A DNA stretch of 64,000 nt from Shigella phage SSG23. The stretch lies in sequence record PQ351811; one strand, written 5' to 3'. The translations under genes were made by a program, and so were the position numbers. Of this stretch, positions 31,389-59,872 are shown one piece after another; the stretch's first letter is position 1; each line of letters opens with the position of its first letter. A model generated the notes under the pieces. It made no database searches, was not told where the DNA came from, and saw nothing but the letters and a program-made list of their open reading frames with translations.

Positions 31389-31417
31389 TTGACAACATGA
31401 AACGGGGGTAGTAAGAT
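31389..31417 (+). promoter_or_regulatory. early promoter cassette P2 with palindromic spacer
   Basis: TTGACA, 17 bp spacer, TAAGAT; inverted repeat GGGGGTA/TACCCCC spans the -10. Confidence 0.6.
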
Positions 31418-31448
31418 ACCCCCACAAACAAACGAAAGGAGAATCAAA

Positions 31449-31607
31449 ATGAAATTTATCGGTAAAACTTTTATGTTCGTAGCTGGTACTCTGTTTACTG
31501 CAACTCTGATAGCTGGTGGGTTGGATATCTTTACTGCCTTTGAAACTTTCGGGTATACTGTAGCGTCGGGTGCTCTCTTCGGATTAGGTTTAGCGATTAG
31601 CAAATAA
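31449..31607 (+). CDS. small hydrophobic membrane protein (52 aa)
   Basis: Short ORF (below ORF-track cutoff) after GGAGAATCAAAATG; MKFIGKTFMFVAGTLFTATLIAGG... Confidence 0.45.
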   Translation: MKFIGKTFMFVAGTLFTATLIAGGLDIFTAFETFGYTVASGALFGLGLAISK

Positions 31608-31616
31608 GGTGATAAT

Positions 31617-31811
31617 ATGGAATTGGATATGGTTAACGCAAAATTTATGGGTAAAGATAAGAAAGGTACAACATTTGTTATTAACAAAACATTGCTTCGC
31701 TCTGACCTTAAGTGGGTAACACAACAATTTGCGGAAGTCAATGAGGCTGTAGTGACCTGCTTTGTCGGTGATAAGAAAGTTTTTGAAATTGACCGTCGTG
31801 GGGGTGTCTAA
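31617..31811 (+). CDS. hypothetical protein
   Basis: 64 aa ORF with RBS, tightly packed. Confidence 0.45.
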   Translation: MELDMVNAKFMGKDKKGTTFVINKTLLRSDLKWVTQQFAEVNEAVVTCFVGDKKVFEIDRRGGV

Positions 31812-32008
31812 TGATCACTAAACTGTTTAGCAATACTTTGTTTCTGATTGCATTTGTTTTCTTTCTGTGTCTGATCATCGGTGTGATTGCAGTCGGTAGT
31901 TATTCCGGTATTACACTAGATGATTTTTGTACATTGGTTTTCTTCTCAAGTGTTCCTACACTCCTGATCGCTGTATGTGGTGCTTTTAGATGGATCTGTG
32001 ATCTATGA
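31811..32008 (+). CDS. small membrane protein
   Basis: 65 aa, two hydrophobic segments; start overlaps previous stop. Confidence 0.5.
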   Translation: MITKLFSNTLFLIAFVFFLCLIIGVIAVGSYSGITLDDFCTLVFFSSVPTLLIAVCGAFRWICDL

Positions 32009-32111
32009 CTGAACAGGAACGAATGATGTTGATAGGTGGACCGGAGTTCACTAAATTTGATGCAATTCTTATTGCGTTGGGGTTTCTTATGATCTGTTGT
32101 ATGGTGGCGCT

Positions 32112-32333
32112 ATGAGTAGCATAAAATATTTTGCTTTCTTGTGTTTTATGATGTTCTTTACATTCTTAGCATGTGTATTCTTTACATGGCTTGCTCATGT
32201 TGATAATGCAACCGGACCGTTTTACTTCTTTTGTGTGCTGTCGGTGTTGACTGGTGCTCTTGTTACGTGGATGATTCGAGATTGTTACGGAATGTATAAG
32301 TTTGAAAAGACTCGACCGAAATGGGGCAAATGA
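32112..32333 (+). CDS. small membrane protein
   Basis: ORF 32097-32333 trimmed to ATG after GGTGG; hydrophobic. Confidence 0.45.
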   Translation: MSSIKYFAFLCFMMFFTFLACVFFTWLAHVDNATGPFYFFCVLSVLTGALVTWMIRDCYGMYKFEKTRPKWGK

Positions 32334-32515
32334 TGAAACTATTTGCGTGGCTAATTATTTTAAATGTAATTATTAAGACTGTTCTCGCTGGTTTACTGAT
32401 GATACATAGCACGGAACCAGAAGAAGCATTAACGTATTGTGTTGCTTATGTGTTGGGATTCTTGCTTACTGCGTGGATGTGTGATGAATATCGAAGAATT
32501 GAGGTAAAACCATGA
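32330..32515 (+). CDS. small membrane protein
   Basis: ORF 32321-32515 trimmed; hydrophobic; overlaps neighbours by 4 nt. Confidence 0.45.
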   Translation: MMKLFAWLIILNVIIKTVLAGLLMIHSTEPEEALTYCVAYVLGFLLTAWMCDEYRRIEVKP

Positions 32516-32730
32516 AGATGACTTTTTATATCTTAGCAAGTATCATGCTTGTGATCTCTTCTGCACTATTTGCATTTCTTACCGTTTGGGGGATCTGCAC
32601 TGATGCGAAGCCGTGGGATATCGTAGAAAACACTGTTATGTTTATTATCAGTCTCATGTGTCTGTTTGATGCATTTAACTCTATCAAAGAAGAAGATCAA
32701 AAACGTCGCGAAAGAAAGCTATATAAATAA
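32512..32730 (+). CDS. small membrane protein
   Basis: 72 aa, two hydrophobic helices, charged C-terminus. Confidence 0.5.
   Translation: MKMTFYILASIMLVISSALFAFLTVWGICTDAKPWDIVENTVMFIISLMCLFDAFNSIKEEDQKRRERKLYK
32722..32729 (+). promoter_or_regulatory. candidate late promoter core TATAAATA (plus strand)
   Basis: Exact TATAAATA at end of preceding ORF, upstream of ORF-free structured region; could be chance in AT-rich DNA. Confidence 0.3.
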
Positions 32731-32735
32731 TAGTG

Positions 32736-32907
32736 AACTAAAACAGCGCGGTTAGAATGATTTGGACGTCACCTAGCCGCATTTATTGCAGCGTATGGGG
32801 TTAATCCGGTACGCTAAAGCATTCACTTGCTAGGCCGCTAGCAGGTTGGAGACAAGGAAGATTCGCTACCTTCCCTATAAGCCACTCTTCGGAGTGGCTT
32901 TTTTATT
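32736..32907 (+). ncRNA. candidate structured non-coding RNA / long 3'-UTR
   Basis: About 170 nt with no plausible ORF; several local hairpins (GCGTA/TACGC, TGCTAG/CTAGCA, GGAAG/CTTCC) ending in the terminator. Confidence 0.25.
32879..32907 (+). terminator. rho-independent terminator
   Basis: Hairpin AAGCCACTCTTCGGAGTGGCTT followed by TTTTTATT. Confidence 0.75.
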
Positions 32908-32932
32908 GCCTAAAATTTTTTAAAAAAAGTTG

Positions 32933-32961
32933 TTGACACCAAATCGTGCCTATAGCATAAT
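32933..32961 (+). promoter_or_regulatory. early promoter cassette P3
   Basis: GTTGTTGACA, 17 bp spacer, CATAAT, then CACCCATCGAAACGAAACAC leader and GGAGAATCAAATTATG. Confidence 0.65.
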
Positions 32962-33007
32962 ACACCCATCGAAACGAAACACACTTTCTTAAACGGAGAA
33001 TCAAATT

Positions 33008-33193
33008 ATGGCACGTCGCATCACTAAAGCACTGAAAGCAGTAAGCAAAGAAAACGTAGTAGCTATTCTGGTAATCTGGGGTTATAACGAAGAATCCGCT
33101 AAACAGAAAGTTGAAGCGGGGTTTGAACTGGCAGTAAAAGCAATGCCGAATGATGACTCTGTAGGGCTGGCAAATTATATCGCATATTTCTGA
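33008..33193 (+). CDS. hypothetical protein
   Basis: 61 aa ORF immediately after promoter-leader cassette. Confidence 0.55.
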   Translation: MARRITKALKAVSKENVVAILVIWGYNEESAKQKVEAGFELAVKAMPNDDSVGLANYIAYF

Positions 33194-33201
33194 TAAAAGT
33201 G

Positions 33202-33231
33202 TTGACAGGGGGAGGATAACTCCCCTACAAT
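33202..33231 (+). promoter_or_regulatory. early promoter cassette P4 with palindromic spacer
   Basis: TTGACA, GGGGGAGGATAACTCCCC palindrome, TACAAT, then CATCAACGAAACGGGAGAATCAAAATG. Confidence 0.6.
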
Positions 33232-33260
33232 ACAACCATCAACGAAACGGGAGAATCAAA

Positions 33261-33482
33261 ATGATCAACTTTAAAGAAGCAGCGAAAGAAATTATCGACT
33301 TTGAGCGCGAATTGTTTGAAATGGAACCAAATATGAGCAAACTGGAACTGGCTAACCAGATCTGGTACTCTAAAATGAATCCATCTGATCGCCTAGAAGT
33401 TATGAACATTGTAGGCGAAGTGAAAGGTAGTGCACTAATGAAACTCCGCGCTTGCCACGCTTACATCGCTGATCAACTGTAA
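33261..33482 (+). CDS. hypothetical protein
   Basis: 73 aa ORF after promoter cassette. Confidence 0.55.
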   Translation: MINFKEAAKEIIDFERELFEMEPNMSKLELANQIWYSKMNPSDRLEVMNIVGEVKGSALMKLRACHAYIADQL

Positions 33483-33493
33483 GAGGGTATATT

Positions 33494-33682
33494 ATGGGGG
33501 AGAAACCATTAGTACAACTAAGAGTACGCTATAACCAGATTTTAGCATTACTTAAGGCTGAGGGTGTAGATCCATCGGACCGCGAGGCTGTAAAAGCGTG
33601 TCTATCTGATACGGTACAACCAAAACAAAACTATGCTTGTTATATGTACTTTCAAAATCGATTGAATAACGTTAAGTGTTGA
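33494..33682 (+). CDS. hypothetical protein
   Basis: 62 aa ORF with RBS. Confidence 0.5.
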   Translation: MGEKPLVQLRVRYNQILALLKAEGVDPSDREAVKACLSDTVQPKQNYACYMYFQNRLNNVKC

Positions 33683-33691
33683 GGTGATACT

Positions 33692-33880
33692 ATGGAAGAC
33701 AAAATTGAACAATTACGCGAATCCGCTAAAGAGCATGGTATGAGCGAAGAGTTTGTAGAATGGTTTATTTCTAAAAAGGCTGATTCCTGCGGGTGCTTTA
33801 ACTTCATTACTATGTCCATTATGTGGGAAGGTTGGAAAGGTGCAGTAGAAACTGCTCTAGAAATTATGAAAAAAGACTAA
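33692..33880 (+). CDS. hypothetical protein
   Basis: 62 aa ORF with RBS. Confidence 0.5.
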   Translation: MEDKIEQLRESAKEHGMSEEFVEWFISKKADSCGCFNFITMSIMWEGWKGAVETALEIMKKD

Positions 33881-33888
33881 AAAAGTTG

Positions 33889-33917
33889 TTGACAATGGGT
33901 CGGGTGTATAGCATAAT
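33889..33917 (+). promoter_or_regulatory. early promoter cassette P5
   Basis: GTTGTTGACA, 17 bp spacer, CATAAT inside GGGTGTAT/ATACACCC inverted repeat, then CATCGAAACGAAACAC leader. Confidence 0.65.
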
Positions 33918-33959
33918 ACACCCATCGAAACGAAACACGAACTACTAAGGAGTATCAAA

Positions 33960-34286
33960 ATGAAACCAGTATCTGTTAAAGTTATCTTCTCTGAATCTTC
34001 TGTATTCGCTAACGCAAACGAAGTATTCCACTTCGAAGACTTCGAGCGTAAAGCACTGGACGCGGCAGCAAAAGCCTATGAAAGCGAATATGACAAAACT
34101 CAAATCGAGGTTACATTCGAAGACGGCACTACTTACGCTTGCCGCCTTGACCTGGGTGATCGTCTGTCTGGCTTCCGTCACCATGTAGAGAAGACAATCG
34201 CTTTCTCTAAAACCGAAAAAGGAAAACACTACTTTTCTGTATTCGGTACTGAAAATCTGGATTTCTTGAAAACGGTTTCTTTCTAA
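33960..34286 (+). CDS. hypothetical protein
   Basis: 108 aa ORF after promoter cassette. Confidence 0.55.
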   Translation: MKPVSVKVIFSESSVFANANEVFHFEDFERKALDAAAKAYESEYDKTQIEVTFEDGTTYACRLDLGDRLSGFRHHVEKTIAFSKTEKGKHYFSVFGTENLDFLKTVSF

Positions 34287-34294
34287 GGTATATT

Positions 34295-34477: not shown

Positions 34478-34478
34478 T

Positions 34479-36705: not shown

Positions 36706-36767
36706 AATATTAACCATCAACGGGGAGACAATCTAAGGATCTCTCCCCGTTCACTGGAGACTTTACC

Positions 36768-39050: not shown

Positions 39051-39079
39051 TTGACAGCATGAAACGGGGGTAGTAATAT
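39051..39079 (+). promoter_or_regulatory. early promoter cassette P6 with palindromic spacer
   Basis: TTGACA, spacer with GGGGGTA/TACCCCC palindrome, TAATAT, then CATCGAAACAACAACGGAGTATTAAAATG. Confidence 0.6.
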
Positions 39080-39110
39080 ACCCCCATCGAAACAACAACG
39101 GAGTATTAAA

Positions 39111-45602: not shown

Positions 45603-45636
45603 AAAAGCCATCCGAAAGGGTGGCTTTTTCGTTTTT
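45603..45636 (+). terminator. rho-independent terminator
   Basis: Hairpin AAGCCATCCGAAAGGGTGGCTT followed by TTTTCGTTTTT. Confidence 0.75.
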
Positions 45637-45641
45637 AGGTG

Positions 45642-45670
45642 TTGACAACCGGATCGTGGTATAGCATAAT
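45642..45670 (+). promoter_or_regulatory. early promoter cassette P7
   Basis: GGTGTTGACA, 17 bp spacer, CATAAT, then CACACATCGACAACAAAAGGAGAACCAAAATG. Confidence 0.65.
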
Positions 45671-46884: not shown

Positions 46885-46913
46885 TTGACAGCGATCCGGT
46901 GTTATTGCATAAT
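46885..46913 (+). promoter_or_regulatory. early promoter cassette P8
   Basis: AGTGTTGACA, 17 bp spacer, CATAAT, then CACCCATCGAAACGAGATACAC and GGAGAATCAAAAATG. Confidence 0.65.
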
Positions 46914-46954
46914 ACACCCATCGAAACGAGATACACTTTCTAGGAGAATCAAAA

Positions 46955-47230: not shown

Positions 47231-48010
47231 ATGGCAATTAAAGCAGGTTGGGTCGGATCATCGGCTGTGTCCGAGACTGGTCAACGGTGGATGAGCGCCG
47301 CAATGCAAGCTGTACGCTTAGGCCGTCCGGCGTATATGTCAGCGATGGTCGGACGCTCTAAAGAGATTCATTATAGCATTGGCGCTAGTAACTCTTACAA
47401 TAAAGACACTCTTATTAACTGGATGAAAGCACAAGGATCTACTCCGGTAGTAATTACTATCACAGGTAATATTGTTTCCCAATCTACTGGCGTTCCTTGT
47501 CTTGATTTCCCTAGCTCACTAACAAATGAATATGTAACACTCATTATTAACTCTGGTGTTCATGTCTGGGGGCGTGGTGGTAATGGTGGCAATAACTCCG
47601 CTGGTGGTGCTGGTGGTAATGCAATTAACAACGGTATAGGCACACGCTTGCGCATCACAAATAACGGCGCTATTTGCGGTGGCGGTGGCGGCGGTGGCGG
47701 CGGGTATTATTCTCCTTTTTCACAAATGAAATTGACTTTTGGTGGAGGGGGCGGTCGTCCATTTGGTGCTGCTGGTGGGTCTGCTAATATGGAACAGGGT
47801 GCTACTGCTGGTACTATTTCCGCGCCAGGTAAAGGGTCTGTCAACGGTGTATATAATGGCGGTAACGGTGGTGATGCTGGTGGTGCTGGTGGTAAATGTA
47901 ATATCCGTGGACAGGGGTCGGAATATAATGGCGGAGCGGCTGGTAAGGCTGTTACTGGCAATGCCCCTCGCTGGGATAAAGTAGGCACGATCTACGGTGC
48001 TCGTGTGTAA
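47231..48010 (+). CDS. gp38-like glycine-rich receptor-binding adhesin
   Basis: 259 aa; N-terminus GWVGSSAVSETGQRWMS and runs GGGGGGGGGYY, FGGGGGRPFG, GGNGGDAGGAGG resemble T2/T6/S16-type gp38 glycine-rich motifs. Confidence 0.55.
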   Translation: MAIKAGWVGSSAVSETGQRWMSAAMQAVRLGRPAYMSAMVGRSKEIHYSIGASNSYNKDTLINWMKAQGSTPVVITITGNIVSQSTGVPCLDFPSSLTNEYVTLIINSGVHVWGRGGNGGNNSAGGAGGNAINNGIGTRLRITNNGAICGGGGGGGGGYYSPFSQMKLTFGGGGGRPFGAAGGSANMEQGATAGTISAPGKGSVNGVYNGGNGGDAGGAGGKCNIRGQGSEYNGGAAGKAVTGNAPRWDKVGTIYGARV

Positions 48011-48016
48011 TTTTAT

Positions 48017-48048
48017 GGGCTATCCTTCGGGGTAGCCTTTTTTGTTTT
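48017..48048 (+). terminator. rho-independent terminator
   Basis: Hairpin GGGCTATCCTTCGGGGTAGCC followed by TTTTTTGTTTT. Confidence 0.75.
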
Positions 48049-48053
48049 GGGTG

Positions 48054-48081
48054 TTGACAAAGATAATCACAATGCTATAAT
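48054..48081 (+). promoter_or_regulatory. early promoter cassette P9 (extended -10)
   Basis: GTGTTGACA, 16 bp spacer, TGCTATAAT, then AAGGAGAATCAAAGATG. Confidence 0.65.
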
Positions 48082-48619: not shown

Positions 48620-49054
48620 ATGAAAAAGTTGATGGCGACCTTTCATGATATGCGAGATCTACCAGGTTTAGAACATGTCGATTTTCCTGTTACTATGGAA
48701 GTGTCGGAATATGACGGTTATCATGATATTCTGTTTATTAAAAACACTGAGTTTATCCGCTTATGCGCTAAACCTGCTGTGCTATACCCAGAAGGAAACC
48801 GGACAGCGGTCAGAAAAACAAATTCTGTTAAATTAGCATTTAGTTCAGATGTTGACTTGGAACCAGCTTTCGGATATACTCCGGTCGAGATCACAAAATC
48901 GAATACTTCATTCGTGAAAGTTGGAGAGAAAACGCATATTTCAACTATGCAAGACGGTACACAATACCTATGGTCCGATTTCTGCCAGCGTTATGAGCGT
49001 TTATCATGGGCTACCCGCTTATGGCGTGTTGAGTATAAGGAGATCACAAAATGA
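48620..49054 (+). CDS. hypothetical protein
   Basis: ORF trimmed to ATG after GAGGAATATAGA RBS. Confidence 0.5.
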   Translation: MKKLMATFHDMRDLPGLEHVDFPVTMEVSEYDGYHDILFIKNTEFIRLCAKPAVLYPEGNRTAVRKTNSVKLAFSSDVDLEPAFGYTPVEITKSNTSFVKVGEKTHISTMQDGTQYLWSDFCQRYERLSWATRLWRVEYKEITK

Positions 49055-49305
49055 TCACCGGATATATTCCATATTCAACGACAAAACACATTGTCGGTTT
49101 TGAAAACATAGAAAAGTCTTGCTTTCCTCTCAAGGTTGAAGTAGACTTTATTACAGCGAACGGATGGGCTTACGTTACCGTGGAAGAGATGAAACGCTTA
49201 GGGTGGGAAAATTGCATACACCTACCGCATCTTATCCTAGATGTTCGCGCTGGTGAGATTGATATTGATGGAAAGATCTATGGAGACAATGTAAATGAAA
49301 ATTGA
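49051..49305 (+). CDS. hypothetical protein
   Basis: 84 aa ORF, translationally coupled. Confidence 0.45.
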   Translation: MITGYIPYSTTKHIVGFENIEKSCFPLKVEVDFITANGWAYVTVEEMKRLGWENCIHLPHLILDVRAGEIDIDGKIYGDNVNEN

Positions 49306-49555
49306 AATTATTGACCGTGCTGGGTATACTTTCATGGAAAAAGTTAAACTTCCTATCATTGTTGAAGGTCGCCCCTACTATCAAGGATTCTTTATAACGA
49401 CCAGAGAACTACGAAAGGCTGGTGTTCCTGTTGAATCCTGTTTCTGTGATGATTATGAATGGTGTTTCAGTGGCTTACGTGCGTGCAAAGCCAAAGAAGA
49501 AGCACGAAAAACATCATGGTTTACTCGCTTTAATAACTGGTTGAGGAAGCTGTGA
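49295..49555 (+). CDS. hypothetical protein
   Basis: 86 aa ORF; GYTF motif shared with next ORF. Confidence 0.45.
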   Translation: MKIEIIDRAGYTFMEKVKLPIIVEGRPYYQGFFITTRELRKAGVPVESCFCDDYEWCFSGLRACKAKEEARKTSWFTRFNNWLRKL

Positions 49556-49893
49556 TGAACGAACCGAAAATGTATTTGTTGCTGAATGATTCAGGATATA
49601 CCTTTCTACAAGGTGTCGAGCGTGATTCCCGTCCGATTGTATATGGCAAGGAACATCCGACCATTCCTGGGGTCATTCTTGTTACGACAACATCACTGCG
49701 TCGAGTGTCGGAAAGTCCATACCTACAAAACGTAAAGCAAGACCGAGAATGGGCTTTCGAGTTAGGTAAAGATCTTGTTGAGTGGGTAAACTGTGAAGAC
49801 AAGAACCAACGAAATCATGAAAAGAAGATTGCACGACTTGAACATAGAAGAAAACTTGATGAAATCAAAAACAGGATTCTACAATCAATGTAA
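49552..49893 (+). CDS. hypothetical protein
   Basis: 113 aa ORF; GYTFLQGVERDSRPIV resembles the previous ORF. Confidence 0.45.
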   Translation: MMNEPKMYLLLNDSGYTFLQGVERDSRPIVYGKEHPTIPGVILVTTTSLRRVSESPYLQNVKQDREWAFELGKDLVEWVNCEDKNQRNHEKKIARLEHRRKLDEIKNRILQSM

Positions 49894-50113
49894 CAGGGTA
49901 TTCATTGTCCTTCTGGATTCAGAAAACTATCCAGAACTCTCTAAAACGCGTTTTCCGTGCGTTGTTGAAGCACACAAGGCATATGCACCAGATAAACAGT
50001 TTATCGTGATGGCGAGCGAAATAGAGCGGTTAGGGGCGATTCCTAAACATGATGAATATGTGTTTCGTAAGGCGTTCTCTGTGCCTCATTTTGGTGTAGA
50101 GTTAATTCACTAA
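49859..50113 (+). CDS. hypothetical protein (start uncertain)
   Basis: ORF 49793-50113 trimmed to an internal ATG to limit overlap with the previous gene. Confidence 0.4.
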   Translation: MKSKTGFYNQCNRVFIVLLDSENYPELSKTRFPCVVEAHKAYAPDKQFIVMASEIERLGAIPKHDEYVFRKAFSVPHFGVELIH

Positions 50114-50129
50114 AATCATAAAAAAGTTG

Positions 50130-50158
50130 TTGACAGGGGATCGCCGATCCCCTATACT
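50130..50158 (+). promoter_or_regulatory. early promoter cassette P10 with palindromic spacer
   Basis: TTGACA, spacer GGGGATCGCCGATCCCC (perfect palindrome), TATACT, then CACATCAAAACGAAACAC leader. Confidence 0.65.
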
Positions 50159-50199
50159 ACACACATCAAAACGAAACACACTTTTTAAGGAGAATCAAA

Positions 50200-50478
50200 A
50201 TGAGCAACCTGTCTTTCGCTAAAGTAGAAATTTCTAAAACTCGCGGTGGCATCAAAATCAAAACTTCCAATATCACTTCCTGCCGTGGTTGCGACCAGTT
50301 TGCGCGTGACCTTGCTGTGAAGCTGGGTATGAAAACCTTTACGGTGGAGAGCGGATCTAACTGGACCACTCTGATTGTTACTGCCGCTTGGATCAATGGC
50401 GAGTATGTAGAAAAAGCATACTTTGACATTTTCTATGACTATGAAGAAAAATGCTTTTACGCACTGCAAGACATGTAA
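50200..50478 (+). CDS. hypothetical protein
   Basis: 92 aa ORF after promoter cassette. Confidence 0.5.
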   Translation: MSNLSFAKVEISKTRGGIKIKTSNITSCRGCDQFARDLAVKLGMKTFTVESGSNWTTLIVTAAWINGEYVEKAYFDIFYDYEEKCFYALQDM

Positions 50479-50488
50479 GGAGGATAAT

Positions 50489-50797
50489 GTGACAACACAA
50501 GATATTGTTAATGTGCTTTATATTTGGCCTACTGGTGCAATGATCTCGTATCTTATATTCTGCTTGTATGCCAGATTCGACAAGAACACGAAAGAGATCG
50601 ATACAGGAGCATTTTGTATTGCTGCAATCATCTGGCCTATAACGTGGACCGTAGTTTATGTTGTTATGTGTTATAAAGGGCTGAAATGTTTTGGTTTGAT
50701 GATCGCGGGTAAACCGGAAGCGAAGCCGCGCAAGCATACCGGATTTACCCCAAAACAAGAAGACGACGGTCGATATAAACCGGAAGAAGATTTTTAA
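50489..50797 (+). CDS. membrane protein (GTG start)
   Basis: ORF 50423-50797 trimmed to GTG after AAGGAGG RBS; hydrophobic helices. Confidence 0.45.
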   Translation: MTTQDIVNVLYIWPTGAMISYLIFCLYARFDKNTKEIDTGAFCIAAIIWPITWTVVYVVMCYKGLKCFGLMIAGKPEAKPRKHTGFTPKQEDDGRYKPEEDF

Positions 50798-50805
50798 AAA
50801 AACAG

Positions 50806-50834
50806 TTGACATGAAAATGCGGTTATCCTATAAT
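50806..50834 (+). promoter_or_regulatory. early promoter cassette P11 (consensus TTGACA-N17-TATAAT)
   Basis: CAGTTGACA, 17 bp spacer, TATAAT, then GAGGATTATATTATG. Confidence 0.7.
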
Positions 50835-50868
50835 AGCCGCATCAAATGAACGATGTGAGGATTATATT

Positions 50869-51177
50869 ATGTTTATCTCTTCTGCTACTCCAGTTAAAGT
50901 TTATGGCGAAACTGTGTATCTTCCGGCTGGCTATCGCTATGTTATTGTTGACCGTTACGGTGTAGTATATGCTTTTAAAGGCCGTCCGGTTGAGATTGAT
51001 GCTGAATATTGTACATGGGGATATAAAGCCGCATACATGGATATTCCTGATCTTGGAGTGCGCTTAGGAAGATTTGATAATGATGTTAAACCATGCTTGA
51101 TTAAGTATGCATCCTATGGTAAAACTGTTAAACCAAATAGCGTCGGCTGGATTGATGACGGCGTTAACGTGAAATAA
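50869..51177 (+). CDS. hypothetical protein
   Basis: 102 aa ORF after promoter. Confidence 0.5.
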   Translation: MFISSATPVKVYGETVYLPAGYRYVIVDRYGVVYAFKGRPVEIDAEYCTWGYKAAYMDIPDLGVRLGRFDNDVKPCLIKYASYGKTVKPNSVGWIDDGVNVK

Positions 51178-51191
51178 TGTGAGGTGAATTT

Positions 51192-51485
51192 ATGTTGTCT
51201 ACTCGTAAAATGGTTGTTGGTGTCGCTGAAAATGCTTTAGAAATCGCTGATGAGGCTTTGACCGTCGCTTATGTTCGACGTGAAGAACTGCTACTGAAAC
51301 ACGCGGACCTGTTGGCTGAAATGAAAGAGACTGCGAAAGCTGGTAAAAGCACGCTCGCGATCGCCATTAAACTTGCTGGTAGTGAAGATGAGATCGTGGA
51401 TATCCACACTAAGATCAAGGAAGTGGAAAAACACTATGAAATGCTGCGACACAATCTTGATGAACTTGGGGTAAATCATGGCTAA
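51192..51485 (+). CDS. hypothetical protein
   Basis: 97 aa helical ORF. Confidence 0.5.
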   Translation: MLSTRKMVVGVAENALEIADEALTVAYVRREELLLKHADLLAEMKETAKAGKSTLAIAIKLAGSEDEIVDIHTKIKEVEKHYEMLRHNLDELGVNHG

Positions 51486-51699
51486 GTTACGATCTGGACG
51501 AGTTTTAACTCTGGTTGAATTGAGAGAAAAGGGATTAGACCCCGATTCTGTCGGTATTAGACCTATTAATTACATTCTGTTTCTAGAGGGTAAACTCTTT
51601 ACTAATGCTCATTCAGCATTAAATGCACCACATTTTTATAAGTGCAATGACTTTAACGGCTATATCGTTCCAGAATATTTCTTAGAATTTGATGATTAG
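51478..51699 (+). CDS. hypothetical protein
   Basis: 73 aa ORF. Confidence 0.45.
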   Translation: MAKLRSGRVLTLVELREKGLDPDSVGIRPINYILFLEGKLFTNAHSALNAPHFYKCNDFNGYIVPEYFLEFDD

Positions 51700-51985
51700 T
51701 ATAAAACACTCACCGACCGGAAAGGGGTCGGTGATCTTTAATGACGATAAGCCGTTAATCTTAATTCGAAATGGTGACTGGACATTACATGATACCCGTG
51801 TTACTATCCATTCACCGCCTAAAGAGATTCAACGGGAATTGGTTAGGATTGCCCTAACCGACAAGCATAAAGATGCGGTAGGTTATTCTCTTCTGAAATT
51901 GGGTGTTGACTTTCCTTTCGAGTATACGCTAACATTCAGAGAGCAGTCAGTGAAGCTAACAGAGATTCTATTCTCTGAGATATGA
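51692..51985 (+). CDS. hypothetical protein
   Basis: ORF 51689-51985 trimmed to ATG. Confidence 0.45.
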   Translation: MISIKHSPTGKGSVIFNDDKPLILIRNGDWTLHDTRVTIHSPPKEIQRELVRIALTDKHKDAVGYSLLKLGVDFPFEYTLTFREQSVKLTEILFSEI

Positions 51986-51995
51986 GGATTATATA

Positions 51996-52424
51996 ATGGT
52001 TTATCCAACTCCTAGTAAGATTTACATTGATGATACCCATTTTATGGTTGATATGATGGGTATAAAGTTTAGTGGTAATGTTAAAATTGTAGAGTGGGAA
52101 TTGCACGGTCAACCTGTCATCGATTATGACCATTACATTCCTTTTTTGGGTGATGACAATTTTGTCTCGTTTGACCATGAAGGTTACATGATCTTTGAAC
52201 AGTCTGACGTACCTTTGTATCTGGCAATGATGCAAATTCCTACGAAGGTTTCTGTTGTTGAGGGTGATTGCGATTGCTGCGGTTGGTATACTGTAACAGA
52301 TATTAAGTTGCCATCCGGTAAAGAACTCTACAACGAAGACCATTTTGGAAACTGTAACTTTCCGTGTGATTGGGATGAATTTTTCGAACTGGTAGAAACT
52401 GAAAGAACTTATTTAAGGAAGTGA
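51996..52424 (+). CDS. hypothetical protein
   Basis: 142 aa ORF after ATGAGGATTATATAATG motif. Confidence 0.5.
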   Translation: MVYPTPSKIYIDDTHFMVDMMGIKFSGNVKIVEWELHGQPVIDYDHYIPFLGDDNFVSFDHEGYMIFEQSDVPLYLAMMQIPTKVSVVEGDCDCCGWYTVTDIKLPSGKELYNEDHFGNCNFPCDWDEFFELVETERTYLRK

Positions 52425-52426
52425 TA

Positions 52427-53239
52427 ATGAAGAAAGTATTAGGTTTAATTCCCTATACTGGCAATAAAGAAAAGTTATTACCGACAATTAGTAAGTATTT
52501 CCCTAAGCACTACAAACGCTTTGTTGATGCCTTTTGTGGTGGCTTGAGCGTGTCTCTGTACGTCGAAGGTGATGTGCTGGCTAATGACTATGATCACCAA
52601 TTAATTGACGCTTACAAGGCCATTGACGAGTGTCCTGATCCGGTTTCTACGATCAAGCGGATTATTGCCGAAAATGGTTTGTCTCGCGAAGATAAAGACG
52701 CTTACATGACATTCCGTAAGAAGTATAACGAGAATCCAGATCCGCTATCGCTGTTTGTGTTGATTCAGCATAGTTTTAGCAACATTAACCGCCATAACCG
52801 GAAGGGCGAATTTAATGCTAATTTTGGTCGCCGGACTTTTAACGAAAACGCGGTAGAGCGTGTCCTGAATTTTAAGGAAGAAAACAAAGACGGTCGAATC
52901 ATTTTTACTTCTGGACGATATGACGAGATCGAGATCTTGCCAGGTGATTTCGTTTATTTGGACCCGCCGTATCTTATCACTTCTGCGGAATATAATAAGT
53001 TCTGGAGTGACGAGGAAGAGATTAAATTCTATCAGTGGGTAGAATCTATTATGGCGCGTGGTTTTCAGTTTGGTATCAGTAATGTCACGCATCATAAGGG
53101 AAAGGTAAATGATCATCTTCTTGACTTTATCAAGCGGAATGATCTAAACTGCGTCCTGTTGAATAAGACCTATTGCCTAGATCGTTCAGGTGGCAAGTCT
53201 TCTGATACGCAAGAAGTTTATGTAACTAACGTAGATTGA
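52427..53239 (+). CDS. dam: DNA adenine methyltransferase (Dam-like, alpha class)
   Basis: N-terminus KKVLGLIPYTGNKEKLLP, FVDAFCGGLSVSL (motif I) and YLDPPY (motif IV), closely resembling T4 Dam. Confidence 0.85.
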   Translation: MKKVLGLIPYTGNKEKLLPTISKYFPKHYKRFVDAFCGGLSVSLYVEGDVLANDYDHQLIDAYKAIDECPDPVSTIKRIIAENGLSREDKDAYMTFRKKYNENPDPLSLFVLIQHSFSNINRHNRKGEFNANFGRRTFNENAVERVLNFKEENKDGRIIFTSGRYDEIEILPGDFVYLDPPYLITSAEYNKFWSDEEEIKFYQWVESIMARGFQFGISNVTHHKGKVNDHLLDFIKRNDLNCVLLNKTYCLDRSGGKSSDTQEVYVTNVD

Positions 53240-53247
53240 GGTATAAT

Positions 53248-53529
53248 ATGGTAGAAATTTTTGGTTTTGAAGGTTACAACTGTAAGTATTGCCAGAATGC
53301 AAAGCGCCTTTGTGAATCGCGTAAGATCCCTTACATCTACATTCCGGTTAATGATGGTGTAGACGAAAACGGTCGTCCGGTAAAGATTGATTCTATCATT
53401 GCCGACATTCAGGATCGCGCAGGGGTAGAAGTTATTGCCACCATGCCGCAGATTTTCTATAATGGTGATTATATAGGTGGTTTTGATGAGTTCAGATCCT
53501 TTGTAGTCAAAAACAAGATTAATGGTTAA
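53248..53529 (+). CDS. nrdC: glutaredoxin/thioredoxin NrdC-like
   Basis: CKYC active site and MPQIFYNGDYIGGFDEF as in T4 NrdC. Confidence 0.75.
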   Translation: MVEIFGFEGYNCKYCQNAKRLCESRKIPYIYIPVNDGVDENGRPVKIDSIIADIQDRAGVEVIATMPQIFYNGDYIGGFDEFRSFVVKNKING

Positions 53530-53553
53530 ATACCTTCTTTGGAGGGTGAATTT

Positions 53554-54027
53554 ATGTTACTGACTGCTAAGAGTGCTAAAGAGTACAAACAAGAACTATT
53601 CGAAAAACAAGGGGGCATTTGCCCCCTTTGTCAATTACCACTTTTTGAGGATATGAGCAAAAACCATCTTGACCATGATCATGATCTAGATGGGAAAGGG
53701 CAAGGCCGCGTAAGGGGATTGCTTCATTCGTGTTGCAACCGCCTAGAAGGATCGTTGACCGGAGACTTTAAACGGTTTGGTGTTGGTGCTTTAGGTGCTG
53801 ATTTCGTTGTTTGGGCTACAAACTATGTTAATTACATCAAAGGAGACTACACCAACAATCATTTACATCCTCAATATGCTGTTGATAAAGTAAAACGATT
53901 TTCACGCTTGACACGCGCGGAGATGGTTGCTATTATGGACGCAGAAGGTTTCGATTACTGCGACGCTGATACACGAGAAGAAATCACGAAGAAGTATAAG
54001 AAACAATTCATACAAAGATTAAGATAG
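53554..54027 (+). CDS. gp49: recombination endonuclease VII (gp49)
   Basis: MLLTAK..., GGICPLCQLPL, NHLDHDHDLDGKGQGRVRGLLHSCCN match T4 endo VII zinc and H-N-H-like motifs. Confidence 0.85.
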   Translation: MLLTAKSAKEYKQELFEKQGGICPLCQLPLFEDMSKNHLDHDHDLDGKGQGRVRGLLHSCCNRLEGSLTGDFKRFGVGALGADFVVWATNYVNYIKGDYTNNHLHPQYAVDKVKRFSRLTRAEMVAIMDAEGFDYCDADTREEITKKYKKQFIQRLR

Positions 54028-54030
54028 TAG

Positions 54031-54059
54031 TTGACAATAAGAAATGGGAGTAGTAAAAT
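54031..54059 (+). promoter_or_regulatory. early promoter cassette P12 with palindromic spacer
   Basis: TTGACA, spacer with GGGAGTA/TACTCCC inverted repeat, TAAAAT, then GGAGAATCAACAATG. Confidence 0.6.
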
Positions 54060-54090
54060 ACTCCCATCTAATCAAGAAGGAGAATCAACA

Positions 54091-54351
54091 ATGCGTAAGA
54101 TGTTTAAAGCTGGTGTGGCCTATGTTTTTAAATCTGAGCAAGCACATAAAGACTTCTTAGATGATGAATACGAAGGGGTGAAAGATACCTACGAAGTCAT
54201 CAAGAATGGGTTTACTGTTCTTAAAGTGTCACCTGTTGGTTATGTAAGTGAAATAGCGGTTGATGGGAAAACATACACCGCTAAAGACTTTGACCCGCGT
54301 TGGGAATTTATGCTGCTTCCGTGTGAGCGCATTCTGTTCCGTGCTGTTTAA
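54091..54351 (+). CDS. hypothetical protein, paralog family A member 1
   Basis: ORF trimmed to ATG after leader; FKAGVAYVFKSEQ...GFTVLKV...DGKTYTAKDF. Confidence 0.5.
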   Translation: MRKMFKAGVAYVFKSEQAHKDFLDDEYEGVKDTYEVIKNGFTVLKVSPVGYVSEIAVDGKTYTAKDFDPRWEFMLLPCERILFRAV

Positions 54352-54377
54352 TTAGTGAAATGATAGAGGATTATATT

Positions 54378-54938
54378 ATGGTACAGAAAACGTATAAATT
54401 GTATCCGGCTAAGTCTTCAAATGATGCTGTTTTTGAACGAGGTCGTTATTACACTTTCCGTAGTGCAGAAACAGCCGCAGAATTTATCAAACGATGTCCG
54501 CAACATAATAAGTTCTTGTATGACGTGCTTTGTAACGGCTTTAAAGTTCTCACTGTTGATGCGATGGGGCGTGTGTATCTGGTAGAAACTCATGGGTATG
54601 AAGGTGCATCTGTTCTGATTGCTGCAAACGAGCGCAAATACTTTAAACGCATCACTAAAAAGCAGTTTGAAGAAATGAAACCAGTTAAGAAAGAAGAATC
54701 TCTGGAAGATCTGATTAACTTGTTTGGTAAAGTTCGCTCTATCTCCTTTGCGATTGAAGATGACATTACCGACAATAAAATCTTTGTCAAGAACGCGGAA
54801 GACCTGAAAGAGTTCCTTATTGAAAATAGATCTCGACTGGAAACCTTTCTTGAAAGTGAAATTATTCGACATGATACCTACGCTAAATTCAGCGCCGAGA
54901 AAGTGGAAGAACTGAAAGAGATTAAAAAGTCACTTTAA
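54378..54938 (+). CDS. hypothetical protein, paralog family A member 2
   Basis: FERGRYYTFRSAE...GFKVLTVD...NERKYFKRITK; charged C-terminal helix. Confidence 0.5.
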   Translation: MVQKTYKLYPAKSSNDAVFERGRYYTFRSAETAAEFIKRCPQHNKFLYDVLCNGFKVLTVDAMGRVYLVETHGYEGASVLIAANERKYFKRITKKQFEEMKPVKKEESLEDLINLFGKVRSISFAIEDDITDNKIFVKNAEDLKEFLIENRSRLETFLESEIIRHDTYAKFSAEKVEELKEIKKSL

Positions 54939-54941
54939 CGC

Positions 54942-54970
54942 TTGACATGATGAAACGGGAGTAGTAAGAT
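54942..54970 (+). promoter_or_regulatory. early promoter cassette P13 with palindromic spacer
   Basis: GCTTGACA, spacer with GGGAGTA/TACTCCC, TAAGAT, then GAGAGGATTATATTATG. Confidence 0.6.
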
Positions 54971-55001
54971 ACTCCCATCTAAACAACGAGAGGATTATAT
55001 T

Positions 55002-56180
55002 ATGGCTAAATTCTTTGAAGGTCATTACTATGCATTCCGTGAAGGCGGTAAAGATGAGTTTCTAGACTTTTCTCGCTATTCAATTATTCTGACCGATGCT
55101 TCGCGCCGTGGTCATATTCGAGTTGCTGAAATCGTAGAAAAGGGCTTTAAAGTATTAGAAAAAGATGACCACGGTCATGTTATTACTATTGAAGCTGGAG
55201 ATGTAGTTTATTCCGCTGAGGATATCGTTTATTATTGGTCTACTATGATTATGCACAATGAGCGCAAATACTTTAAACGTATCTCAAAAGAGGCATACGA
55301 AGCGATGAACAAGAAAGAGGATGCAATGCCGACTTACTTTGAAAAAGGTAAATGTTATTCGTTTACCCCAGAAGGTTTGCAAGAATTTAAGCGATTCTGG
55401 GGAGAGCATGACCCAGAACACAAAGAAGCCATGAAACTTGCTGATTTTGTCGAATATGGCTTTTTGGTTGAAGAAGAATTGCACGGATCAGCTACCATGA
55501 TCACCGCGAAAGGTGAAACCGTTAAGGCAGATCGTTTTTGTGATCAATGGGCTTGTGTGTTTGACGGTGGCGAATTTGAATACTTCGCGGAAATCACCAA
55601 CCATCAATTTCATTCTATGCAAGCGGAAGGTCAGCGATTTAAAGTAGGCGAACGCTACAAGCCAAATCAGCATAATTTGCCTCATTGGTTTAACACTGAA
55701 ACCGTATCCAGCCATGTTATTGAAATTGTTCAAAAGCTGGAACATGGATTTAAGGTAACTAAAGTAGATCCTTTCGGAAGTGTTGACGCGGTTGAAGTTG
55801 ATGGTGTAGAATATACTCCCAAATCTTTCGGGCTTTGCTGGTATCATCTGATCAGCAATGATGAACGTTATAACTTTGTTGAACTGCCATCTGAACCGGA
55901 AGAAGCACTAGAGGATCATGATCATCTATCTGAACTGGTTAAGCTGTTTGGTGATCTGCCGGATGGTGTAGGGGTGGCGGTAATGGGTGAAGGTGCGGTT
56001 ATCCGAAACCTGAAAGACTTTAAAAAGTTCTTGATTGACATGCTGCCTAAACTTGATGATAATCTCGATACAGATATTCAGAATCGCAAAGAAATTGTTA
56101 AAGAGACTGAAAAAGAGATCGAAGCGATTCGAGCAATTCGCCAGAAGGTGAAAGCAGTAAAGAAAAAAGTTCGTGCTTGA
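55002..56180 (+). CDS. hypothetical protein, paralog family A member 3 (internally repeated)
   Basis: 392 aa; repeats of the family A domain (FEGHYYAFREG...GFKVLEKD..., NERKYFKRISK, ...GFKVTKVD...); C-terminal coiled coil. Confidence 0.55.
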   Translation: MAKFFEGHYYAFREGGKDEFLDFSRYSIILTDASRRGHIRVAEIVEKGFKVLEKDDHGHVITIEAGDVVYSAEDIVYYWSTMIMHNERKYFKRISKEAYEAMNKKEDAMPTYFEKGKCYSFTPEGLQEFKRFWGEHDPEHKEAMKLADFVEYGFLVEEELHGSATMITAKGETVKADRFCDQWACVFDGGEFEYFAEITNHQFHSMQAEGQRFKVGERYKPNQHNLPHWFNTETVSSHVIEIVQKLEHGFKVTKVDPFGSVDAVEVDGVEYTPKSFGLCWYHLISNDERYNFVELPSEPEEALEDHDHLSELVKLFGDLPDGVGVAVMGEGAVIRNLKDFKKFLIDMLPKLDDNLDTDIQNRKEIVKETEKEIEAIRAIRQKVKAVKKKVRA

Positions 56181-56204
56181 CATGCGAAGGGAGTATGCTA
56201 TAAT
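56177..56204 (+). promoter_or_regulatory. early promoter cassette P14 (extended -10, palindromic)
   Basis: GCTTGACA, 16 bp spacer, TGCTATAAT flanked by GGGAGTAT/ATACTCCC. Confidence 0.65.
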
Positions 56205-56234
56205 ACTCCCACTTAACAACGAGAGGATTATATT

Positions 56235-56729
56235 ATGTGGGTACAAGATGTTTGGTATACTGTAACTAAAGAAAACCTTGACGCATTCAGCGACCAATCT
56301 TGCGCTAATAGTTCAATTGCTGGTATCCTTACTGATGTGTTTGGTGGTGTTGATAAAATTCGTTTTAAAGTTGTTGTTGGTTCGATGGGGGGTGTAAAAG
56401 ACCTATACACCGAAGATAAAGACCTTGATCTTGAACTTCGTCTTCGTATTGATAATGCAAGTCTAGGTTATTGGTTTGAAGATAACGAATATGAATACTT
56501 CACCCCAGCAATTAAAGTTTTTGCGACTAAACTGGAAGCTGTACTAAATATCCGACCAATTAATGTTGACGGTTATATTATCAAAAATATTCAGGATTGG
56601 GAGTTGTATCTAGATCAGATTATCCGAAATAGTAAGCAGGAAGCCGCTAATAAGAAGCGACAAGAGATTAAACAGCTTAAGGCTGAACTGGAAGCTAAAG
56701 AAAAAGAATTAGCAGAACTGGTAAAATAA
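56235..56729 (+). CDS. hypothetical protein
   Basis: 164 aa with C-terminal coiled coil (KQLKAELEAKEKELAEL). Confidence 0.5.
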   Translation: MWVQDVWYTVTKENLDAFSDQSCANSSIAGILTDVFGGVDKIRFKVVVGSMGGVKDLYTEDKDLDLELRLRIDNASLGYWFEDNEYEYFTPAIKVFATKLEAVLNIRPINVDGYIIKNIQDWELYLDQIIRNSKQEAANKKRQEIKQLKAELEAKEKELAELVK

Positions 56730-56762: not shown

Positions 56763-56773
56763 TAGGTGATACA

Positions 56774-58636: not shown

Positions 58637-58640
58637 ATTT

Positions 58641-58673
58641 CAGCCGATCCGAAAGGGTCGGCTTTTTCGTTTT
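58641..58673 (+). terminator. rho-independent terminator
   Basis: Hairpin CAGCCGATCCGAAAGGGTCGGCTT followed by TTTTCGTTTT. Confidence 0.75.
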
Positions 58674-58679
58674 GGGGTG

Positions 58680-58707
58680 TTGACAACATGATTAGATAAT
58701 GTATAAT
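58680..58707 (+). promoter_or_regulatory. early promoter cassette P15
   Basis: GGGGTGTTGACA, 16 bp spacer, TATAAT, then CTCACATCGAAAACAACGAGAGGACAACATG. Confidence 0.65.
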
Positions 58708-58736
58708 GCTCACATCGAAAACAACGAGAGGACAAC

Positions 58737-59276
58737 ATGATGATGTTTTGTGTACTGAGCAAAGAAGTTAAACTTCGTAAACTGGAAATTGGCGATGGTG
58801 TTGTTGTTAAAATGCACGCTAGCACATTGACTAGTTTTAATTTAAAGGAAAGTTTTTTTATTAGAGGAACGGTGGTTAATATCTGCTGGAGTAAAGGCGA
58901 AGGAATCCGTAGCTTTTGCGTAATTGACGATGATAATAACCTGTATGTGATTCGCTATCATAATAATTCTATATTGGTCTATACCGACAATTCACGAGAA
59001 TTGTATACTCTTGAATTTGTTAAGCGTACTGATTGCGATCGATTTGTTCGTGCTTATGAAGAAGATGGCTGTTTTGCGACTGAAACAGAAACACATGAAT
59101 ATGTTCCTATGGAAGTAGGAGCCGAAATTAAACACAAGATCACGGATCGTATTTTTAAGGTTGTGGCGGTTGCTCATACTCAATTTGTAGCGCAAGCGCC
59201 GGATGAAGAATTTATTATCTACAATATTGGTAATGCAAGTTCTCACTTTCATAATGTACAATATCGCGATCTTTGA
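58737..59276 (+). CDS. hypothetical protein
   Basis: 179 aa ORF after promoter cassette. Confidence 0.5.
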   Translation: MMMFCVLSKEVKLRKLEIGDGVVVKMHASTLTSFNLKESFFIRGTVVNICWSKGEGIRSFCVIDDDNNLYVIRYHNNSILVYTDNSRELYTLEFVKRTDCDRFVRAYEEDGCFATETETHEYVPMEVGAEIKHKITDRIFKVVAVAHTQFVAQAPDEEFIIYNIGNASSHFHNVQYRDL

Positions 59277-59287
59277 AATAATGTGAG

Positions 59288-59839
59288 GTGACTATGAAAT
59301 CATTAAACCGTAAACGTAAAGCACAACGACACATGGAACACGCAAAATCAATTAATGTTGATATGACATTAGAACATATTGATGATGATTCATGTTATGA
59401 TGATGAACCAACAAATAAGATCCCTGTATGGATGGTTACGGTAAGAATTGACAATAAACAGATCGAAGAGACACACGATGCTTTAGCCTTGTTTCACGAA
59501 TGGCATCCGGTTAATATCGGGTGGGAGGAAAACAAAGCAAAAGGTCAATACTTCCTCACCTGTTCGTGTGGTGTAGCCGGATGCGCTGGGTATTGGGAAC
59601 CTGTTGTGATTCGGGTTAAAAAGGATACTGTACAATGGTCTGTGCGTAAAGAGCAGGGATACAGCAAAGGTGTGATCGGTACTGGCGAGAATGTGATTTA
59701 TCTTAAACGTAAAGATTACGAAGAGTGCCGGAAGTTTATTTTGAATATGCTGCGTTCTTATCCAGATGACAATTTCATGTTTGCCGGAGAGTACCTACCA
59801 GGCCGCCTGTGGTTGAAATCTCTCGAAAAATTTAAATAA
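59288..59839 (+). CDS. hypothetical protein
   Basis: 183 aa ORF with GAGGTGA RBS. Confidence 0.5.
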   Translation: MTMKSLNRKRKAQRHMEHAKSINVDMTLEHIDDDSCYDDEPTNKIPVWMVTVRIDNKQIEETHDALALFHEWHPVNIGWEENKAKGQYFLTCSCGVAGCAGYWEPVVIRVKKDTVQWSVRKEQGYSKGVIGTGENVIYLKRKDYEECRKFILNMLRSYPDDNFMFAGEYLPGRLWLKSLEKFK

Positions 59840-59843
59840 ATGC

Positions 59844-59872
59844 TTGACGGGGATCGCGAGATCCCCTATACT
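59844..59872 (+). promoter_or_regulatory. early promoter cassette P16 with palindromic spacer
   Basis: GCTTGACG, spacer GGGGATCGCGAGATCCCC, TATACT, then CACACATCAAGACGAGATAC and GGAGAATCAAATATG. Confidence 0.6.

Follow-up and report, generated by a model that had tools for sequence, protein, structure and literature searches.

The early region of Shigella phage SSG23 (sequence record PQ351811) carries a series of sigma70 promoters, many of which enclose a GC-rich inverted repeat; these composite elements are the promoter-early stem-loop (PeSL) cassettes of RB49- and phi1-type phages. We analysed a 64,000-nt stretch of this genome (hereafter the window), in which an earlier note had drawn attention to palindromes in the -35/-10 spacer of eight promoters. 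The G+C content of the window is ~40%. Its GC skew and coding strand flip near 26 kb, and from ~27 kb to 64 kb all genes lie on the plus strand, mostly as small open reading frames (ORFs) without assigned function; at ~26000-27100, minus-strand ORFs ending near 26479-27033 face the plus-strand early block across a divergent junction. No tRNA genes were found in the window, and the Rfam covariance models gave 0 matches at gathering score across its entire length. In megablast searches of GenBank phages with segments 49000-56500 and 36000-60900, Shigella phage SFHK24 (PQ351812.1) matched at 100% identity and ~50 Krischvirus genomes, including RB49, phi1, JSE and GEC-3S, at 93-97%. The source is therefore a Krischvirus (an RB49-like T4-type phage), and the high identity to these genomes places the palindromes in the early, hyperplastic region of such a phage. 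A search of IMG/VR with the Dam protein returned 2 related loci; GenBank phage records were used instead.

To list promoters, we took every TTGAC[AGT] with a -10-like hexamer 16-18 nt downstream. This recovered 16 strong intergenic sigma70 early promoters on the plus strand, P1-P16 (Table 1), in an order that reproduces the earlier numbering; the numbering is a reconstruction (TTGAC[AG]) anchored by 31389 as the start of P2 and 59872 as the end of the P16 -10 hexamer. All 16 have spacers of 16-18 nt and match 10-12 of the 12 hexamer positions, and the 25 nt upstream of them average 70% A+T (64-80% in the hairpin-type cassettes) versus 60% for the region. A further promoter-like site (TTGACG, 17-nt spacer, AATAAT) lies at 30059-30093, within the end of the dNMP kinase gene. 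It holds an A/T-rich 8-bp palindrome, ACCATTAT cataa ATAATGGT, that is neither GC-rich nor of the PeSL stem type.

When the 33-nt segment from the spacer to about +3 was folded as RNA, ten promoters (P2, P4, P5, P6, P10, P11, P12, P13, P14 and P16) gave energies of -10.0 to -14.0 kcal/mol, compared with -0.7 to -6.9 kcal/mol for P1, P3, P7, P9 and P15. P8 was intermediate at -7.2 kcal/mol, its hairpin alone reaching -4.1. Since only 1.9% of 33-nt windows across the 64 kb reach -10 kcal/mol, against 10/16 promoters, the hairpins are far beyond chance. The sequences quoted in the earlier note were all located: GGGGATCGCCGATCCCC at 50136-50152, GGGGGTA..TACCCCC at 31404-31423 and 39066-39085, and GGGAGTA..TACTCCC at 54046-54065, 54957-54976 and 56189-56210. 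The palindromes named there, in P2, P4, P6, P10, P12, P13, P14 and P16, are thus all present and fold stably, and the list has to be extended by two strong members (P5 and P11) and a weak one (P8).

Table 1. Promoter cassettes and stand-alone hairpins of the window. Promoter coordinates begin with the first base of the -35 hexamer and end with the last base of the -10 hexamer.
Feature	Position	Strand	Description
Stand-alone hairpins in minus-strand gene block	2167-2199, 2710-2742, 8734-8766	minus	intercistronic, no promoter, no T-tract
P1 cassette	30899..30964	+	terminator 30899-30919 + T-tract; promoter 30936-30964 without embedded hairpin
P2 (TTGACA, 17-nt spacer, TAAGAT)	31389..31417	+	-10-straddling hairpin 31404-31423, GGGGGTA gtaaga TACCCCC; alone -12.5 kcal/mol; upstream stop codon ends 6 nt ahead of -35
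P3 cassette	32879..32961	+	terminator 32879-32900 (UUCG loop) + T-tract; promoter 32933-32961
P4 (18-nt spacer, TACAAT)	33202..33231	+	spacer-type hairpin 33209-33225, GGGGAG gataa CTCCCC
P5 (CATAAT)	33889..33917	+	-10-straddling hairpin 33902-33923, GGGTGTAT agcata ATACACCC
Stand-alone G(n)-loop-C(n) hairpin	36720..36750	+	ACGGGGAGA..TCTCCCCGT; intercistronic, no promoter, no T-tract; -17.1 kcal/mol
P6 (TAATAT)	39051..39079	+	hairpin 39066-39085, GGGGGTA gtaata TACCCCC; upstream stop codon adjoins -35
P7 cassette	45603..45670	+	terminator 45603-45628 (GAAA loop); promoter 45642-45670
P8 (CATAAT)	46885..46913	+	weak/decayed -10-straddling hairpin 46898-46918, GGTGT..ACACC, 5 bp
P9 cassette	48017..48081	+	terminator 48017-48038 (UUCG loop); promoter 48054-48081
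P10 (TATACT)	50130..50158	+	spacer-type hairpin 50136-50152, GGGGATC gcc GATCCCC; type as phi1 PeSL211/210
P11 (TATAAT)	50806..50834	+	-10-straddling hairpin 50817-50842, ATGCGGTTAT cctata ATAGCCGCAT, one T·G pair
P12 (TAAAAT)	54031..54059	+	hairpin 54044-54067, ATGGGAGTA gtaaaa TACTCCCAT
P13 (TAAGAT)	54942..54970	+	hairpin 54957-54976, GGGAGTA gtaaga TACTCCC
P14 (16-nt spacer, TATAAT)	56177..56204	+	hairpin 56189-56210, GGGAGTAT gctata ATACTCCC; upstream stop codon TGA within TTGACA -35
P15 cassette	58642..58707	+	terminator 58642-58663 (GAAA loop); promoter 58680-58707
P16 (TTGACG, TATACT)	59844..59872	+	spacer-type hairpin 59849-59866, GGGGATC gcga GATCCCC, GNRA loop

The embedded hairpins come in two designs. 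In the spacer type (P4, P10, P16) the stem starts at or adjoining the last -35 base and ends one base before the -10 hexamer, as in TTGACA GGGGATCgccGATCCCC TATACT. In the straddling type (P2, P5, P6, P8, P11-P14) the distal half of the spacer supplies the 5' arm, most of the -10 hexamer makes up the loop, and the 3' arm consists of the last 1-2 hexamer bases plus the discriminator (-7/-8 to -1), as in GGGGGTA gTAAGA TACCCCC. The earlier description of a palindromic spacer that partly overlaps the -10 therefore fits only in part: a true spacer palindrome is confined to P4, P10 and P16, and the others straddle the hexamer. Counted by position, the stem-loop of the 16 promoters is spacer-type in 3, lies over the -10 in 8 (1 of them weak) and stands upstream as a terminator in 5. 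The 5' ends of early RB49 transcripts were reportedly mapped by Desplats et al. in 2002. Transcription start sites in the window are predictions, obtained from a 7-nt rule together with a statement by Nolan et al. 2006, and all 16 promoters have an A at the predicted +1, 7 nt beyond the -10 hexamer. The RB49 early-promoter logo prefers C at -3 to -1, and its consensus agrees with 5'-end mapping (Nolan et al. 2006). The straddling 3' arm so ends at about -1 of the predicted transcript, implying that the hairpin would be absent from its own promoter's transcript and could take its RNA form only in read-through from upstream.

The two kinds of cassette also differ in layout. P1, P3, P7, P9 and P15, which lack the palindrome, each follow a terminator made of a 9-11 bp hairpin and a T-tract, and the palindrome promoters have none, just as the earlier note had stated. 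Where the hairpin is embedded, the stop codon of the upstream gene is found between 18 nt ahead of the -35 and 4 nt within it, so near that no space is left for a separate terminator; the intergenic length of these cassettes is 54-88 nt, versus ~100-112 nt for the terminator type. The Shine-Dalgarno sequence and ATG of the downstream ORF follow 23-40 nt after the predicted +1 (stop-to-ATG distance 54-112 nt overall). The sense-strand sequence after the stems reads TATACT.., ATCGAAAC.. or ACAAAC..

Hairpins of the same make also occur away from promoters (Table 1). These stand-alone copies lie directly upstream of Shine-Dalgarno sequences (for example AGCGGGGA gaaaa TCCCCGCT), and promoter spacers of related genomes contain an almost identical stem, CGGGGA-GAAA-TCCCCG. 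The stand-alone and promoter-embedded hairpins form one hairpin class.

Stem conservation was assessed by counting variable columns in ungapped orthologue comparisons. Outside the hexamers, 7/133 stem columns (5%) were variable, compared with 17/57 (30%) for the non-stem spacer, 8/22 (36%) for the loop, 2/60 for the -35 hexamer and 0/60 for the -10 hexamer; P4 columns were counted without usable orthologues (1-nt indel), which slightly inflates the denominators and leaves the contrast unchanged. Stems against all other spacer and loop columns (25/79, 32%) gave a Fisher p=5e-7. The stems are thus as conserved as the hexamers, which points to purifying selection on the stem. Between paralogues, the pairing is kept and the sequence varies. 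Among distinct straddling cores, one pair is G-C in 13, A-T in 14, T-A in 6 and G·T in 1, and another is G-C in 27, T-A in 4, A-T in 1 and T·G in 1, although paralogues share descent and recombination, so that these copy counts are not counts of independent events. Three pairs of the spacer class alternate in the same way (A-T/G-C; G-C/T-A/A-T; C-G/A-T/T-A). The resulting set of covarying arms, GGGGGTA/TACCCCC, GGGAGTA/TACTCCC, GGGTGTAT/ATACACCC, GCGGTTAT/ATAGCCGC, GGGGATC/GATCCCC and GGGGAG/CTCCCC, argues against a single sequence-specific operator.

Some features bear on the strand on which the hairpin acts. With G·T and A·C treated alike when stems were scored, internal transition mismatches were T·G or G·T in 5 independent cases (two phi1 PeSLs, P11 itself and one variant each of P11 and P12) versus A·C in 1, a direction that fits sense-strand RNA or sense-strand single-stranded DNA. 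The four-base loops of spacer-type hairpins read GCGA, GGGA or GAAA (GNRA) on the sense strand, with TCGC in one orthologue. This orthologue is that of P16 (loop 59856-59859, GCGA), in the L004:29495 region; likewise, the loop at P10 (50143-50145) is GGT or ACC across loci L001, L002, L005 and L008. In both cases the stems are unchanged and the loops are reverse complements, which suggests palindrome-mediated loop inversion or template switching, with stepwise substitution also possible for P10. The G-rich 5' and C-rich 3' arms (G:C 164:22 vs 23:163) were rejected as strand evidence because a palindrome reads G-first on both strands, and a whole-genome scan of hairpin orientation against gene strand was dropped owing to the same symmetry; only the G·T versus A·C mismatches and the loop sequences inform on strand.

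The characters that define these cassettes have been described for PeSLs. Arbiol et al. 2010 (PMC2839356) found PeSLs in phi1 and RB49 as motifs repeated ~50 times in each genome, which combine a consensus sigma70 promoter, A/T-rich sequence upstream of it and a stem-loop proposed to terminate or attenuate upstream transcription; Comeau et al. 2014 (PMC4122927) refer to them as composite promoter-terminator motifs with a 'GN-loop-CN' stem. The window promoters are positional orthologues of sites in phi1, RB49-like genomes, GEC-3S, JK32 and LF73P4, with nearly identical cores. Their 530-nt flanks align at 86-98% to the phi1 and RB49-like loci that share these cores, and these promoters and terminators are also marked in the GEC-3S annotation. 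In the phi1 record, PeSL211/210, which precedes ORF210, reads TTGACA GGGGATCGGTGATCCCC TTATAAT, a spacer-type palindrome like that of P10. We accordingly identify the palindromes as PeSLs, an element already known, and regard their recognition here as a rediscovery. Functional data come from the same literature: PMC2839356 reports promoter activity for phi1 PeSL206/205 and a cut in expression, about as large as that caused by rrnB T1, when the PeSL211/210 stem-loop was inserted between lacZ and a strong promoter. Promoter activity, and the terminator-like activity that one spacer-type stem-loop showed in a lacZ fusion, are taken from this literature.

The relation between embedded hairpins and true terminators was quantified, in the window and in one complete genome with terminators called by a T-run-anchored fold. 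Among window promoters that have a purine at +1 preceded by C at -1, 10 had only a hairpin, 6 only a terminator, 2 neither and 0 both (Fisher p=0.0015). The corresponding counts in a complete RB49-like genome (OZ035808.1) were 24, 11, 9 and 0 (p=2e-5), and over all collected sequences the 202 promoter-like hits divided into 95 hairpin-only, 36 terminator-only, 71 neither and 0 both. Hairpin and terminator act like two options for a single task. Among the promoters with neither are visibly decayed copies, such as GGGGGTA..TACCCaC. Decayed PeSLs in OZ035808.1 at 46116, 72519 and 72832 (minus strand; loci L010 and L011) retain an intact promoter and conserved leader; one stem arm is substituted (TACCCaC, TACTaCC) or lost, so that the hairpin is dispensable at some sites.

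In light of the reporter result and the exclusivity with terminators, it appears on balance probable that the embedded hairpin terminates or attenuates upstream transcripts, as published. In each compact intergenic cassette, the nucleotides of a near-consensus sigma70 early promoter double as those of a G(n)-loop-C(n) stem-loop. The stem-loop, ending at or before -1, would form only in RNA reading through from the upstream gene, where it could take over the job of the separate hairpin and T-tract terminator used at other promoters. By ending or attenuating the upstream transcript and leaving a protective 3' hairpin on it, it would make each small early gene or gene group its own transcription unit, saving ~35-40 bp of separate terminator, and its overlay on the promoter would keep the cassette short and portable. 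We infer both that the effect is one of true termination or attenuation rather than RNA stabilisation alone and that the straddling type acts like the spacer type. How a stem without a U-tract might release polymerase can be pictured in several ways: an A/U-rich -10 or leader could weaken the RNA-DNA hybrid, a phage factor could assist, or polymerase at the overlapping promoter could play a part. We consider it unlikely that PeSLs are a dual RNA/DNA element, in which the hairpins bring about efficient non-canonical termination without a U-tract or, as DNA hairpins, drive loop inversion and cassette exchange.

Several observations weigh against termination or attenuation by the embedded hairpin. 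The sense-strand T-tail score of embedded hairpins is 1.5-2.8, versus 3.3-5.7 for the 9 canonical terminators on the plus strand between 28 and 59 kb. This bears out the earlier observation that no U-tract follows the palindromes, and under the established model of intrinsic termination the hairpins should, judged by their sequence, be poor terminators. The earlier note had on these grounds called termination unlikely; that is reasonable for the sequence, and it is contradicted by the sole available experiment, the reported PeSL211/210 lacZ fusion. The lacZ result itself comes from one spacer-type construct, and lower lacZ could also mean RNA processing. With 9/44 early promoters of the RB49-like genome carrying neither element, the hairpin is not obligatory. 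The 5:1 count of G·T versus A·C mismatches is not significant alone, and template switching between the arms can produce stem covariation without any selection on RNA. A literature search for Krischvirus or RB49 transcriptomes or transcript 3' ends found nothing relevant.

It is possible, if rather doubtful, that the read-through hairpin does not stop polymerase but, after an endonuclease cut downstream, shields the end of the upstream cistron from 3'-to-5' exonucleases; host RNase E, cutting in the A-rich leader, and phage RegB, cutting in the GGAG Shine-Dalgarno, would be the candidate endonucleases. The main argument for this is the missing U-tract. It gains from the GGAG/GAGG Shine-Dalgarno found within 23-36 nt after each hairpin, from the annotation of regB at the corresponding position in related genomes, and from the stand-alone members of this hairpin class, which directly precede Shine-Dalgarno sequences within operons, a setting in which termination would do harm; the sense-strand RNA evidence (covariation, mismatches, stem conservation) fits it equally well. 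A pure stabiliser, however, should not lower downstream expression, and the spacer-type stem-loop reportedly lowered lacZ about as much as rrnB T1; strict exclusivity with true terminators is also more natural if both do one job. The earlier suggestion of a stem-loop in read-through RNA, acting as processing site or 3' stabiliser, therefore survives in its first half, a read-through RNA role fitting best, but action solely after transcription ranks as a lesser rival. RNase III normally needs roughly two helical turns, and processing by this enzyme was rejected, the stems of 6-10 bp being too short.

We regard as improbable a role mainly at the level of DNA, in which a hairpin, cruciform or recognition site serves recombination (PeSL-to-PeSL exchange, mini-circles) or a supercoiling-dependent promoter switch and any RNA effects are secondary, although a recombination role is compatible with the other readings. 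One crossover has been mapped within a loop and GGGG...CCCC has been speculated to be a recombination-protein site (Arbiol et al. 2010, PMC2839356), and repeated PeSL cassettes are published as crossover points for modular gene shuffling. Our own comparisons add homology breakpoints at PeSLs (59823 at P16, 50203 at P10, and also 45660, 48087 and 58758). The clearest of these is at P16, where divergence changes sharply, as would fit recombination at the cassette: the ORF upstream (59288-59839) has 49% protein identity to its GEC-3S counterpart, and the DNA downstream is ~97% identical in six related genomes. The reverse-complement loops of orthologues (GCGA/TCGC at P16, GGT/ACC at P10) and an Endonuclease VII encoded nearby in related genomes are in keeping with such a role. 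Yet PeSL spans, 4.7% of the region, take in only ~5 of the 41 distinct megablast breakpoints, a modest enrichment. Shared promoter and leader homology would suffice for recombination with the stem unneeded, 6-8 bp stems are generally short for spontaneous cruciform extrusion, and both the hairpin/terminator exclusivity and the mostly G·T sense-strand mismatches are left unexplained. It is very unlikely that the straddling hairpins are instead terminators of antisense transcription that protect early genes. Their minus-strand tails (GTTTCATG.., TTCTTATT..) are T-richer, scoring 2.9-4.0 against 1.5-2.2 on the sense strand, which is why simple scans (here at 31425-31402 and 54069-54042, minus strand) and the annotation of phage TB34 call terminators opposite genes, at least one of these in TB34 coinciding with an embedded hairpin. 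In an antisense RNA, however, the T·G/G·T variants that occur naturally would turn into A·C mismatches. T-rich tails are absent from both strands of the spacer-type hairpins, the 38-kb same-strand block shows no sign of antisense promoters or genes, and exclusivity with sense-strand terminators would go unexplained. Least probable of all is the operator for a dimeric phage or host regulator, switching a promoter subset, that the earlier note had proposed. Dyad symmetry overlapping a core promoter is the classical position for a repressor, and RB49-type phages are without MotA, their early shut-off being less well understood. A conserved half-site would nevertheless be expected, and the half-sites differ and covary (G-C, A-T and T-A at one pair; at least 6 arm sequences). 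The dyads moreover occupy at least 2 registers relative to the -35 and -10, their loops vary from 3 to 6 nt, the straddling type has its dyad centred on the -10 hexamer, similar hairpins lie away from promoters, and the hairpins are mutually exclusive with terminators; we therefore disfavour the operator.

If the hairpin acts in read-through RNA, a PeSL superimposes two regulatory signals, with 20-25 nt serving as the core of the downstream promoter and as the 3' hairpin of the upstream gene. The mechanistic question is how a hairpin without a U-tract lowers downstream expression as strongly as reported. A part in driving modular gene shuffling among T4-type phages has been proposed for PeSLs as well. 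Descriptions of the element go back to 2010; its pattern, including the complementarity with canonical terminators, is recognisable in raw sequence.

Genes flanking the cassettes are mostly annotated as hypothetical in relatives. ORF 43446-45593 (715 aa), with the terminator-type cassette P7 at its end, is a variable large gene: the stretch 43538-45555 within it has no megablast match in RB49-like, LF73P4, GEC-3S, phi1 and ECD7-like loci and is present in Shigella phage JK32, annotated there as a hypothetical protein of ~712 aa. ORF 47231-48010 (gp38 adhesin in related genomes) contains a GGCGGTGGCGGCGG-type repeat at 47662-47700 that encodes a glycine-rich run.

Among known systems, canonical intrinsic terminators resemble the embedded hairpins in being GC-rich and of similar stability (-10 to -13 kcal/mol embedded versus -10 to -16 kcal/mol), in lying at the 3' end of a gene, in some GNRA loops and in filling the same functional slot, the two never co-occurring. 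They differ in that the embedded hairpins overlap a promoter and have no U-tract, a defining feature of such terminators. The intercistronic hairpins of phage T4 and bacterial REP-type 3' stabilisers are short, very stable, free of U-tracts and thought to protect upstream mRNA; stable T4 RNA hairpins with UUCG or GNRA tetraloops were reportedly described by Tuerk et al. in 1988. The stand-alone hairpins of the window, at 36720-36750 and in the minus-strand block, resemble them. The T4 and REP-type elements are not built into promoter core sequences. The early promoters of coliphage N4 are extruded DNA hairpins with 5-7 bp stems, recognised by the virion RNA polymerase, and share with the window an inverted repeat at the promoter core. 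The window hexamers, by contrast, are standard sigma70 elements at standard spacing, which an extruded spacer-type hairpin would destroy. The closest likeness is to the PeSLs of phi1 and RB49, down to the near-consensus TTGACA-N16-18-TATAAT promoter with its A/T-rich upstream region, the G(n)-loop-C(n) stem-loop placed in the -35/-10 spacer, across the -10 or ahead of the -35, and the order of upstream stop codon, Shine-Dalgarno and start of a small ORF in hyperplastic early regions. What the window adds to the known element is quantitative only (statistics on exclusivity, the conservation of stems compared with spacers, the tally of G·T and A·C mismatches, and the end of the 3' arm at -1), and it differs in nothing essential, showing small variants in loops and non-stem spacer positions.

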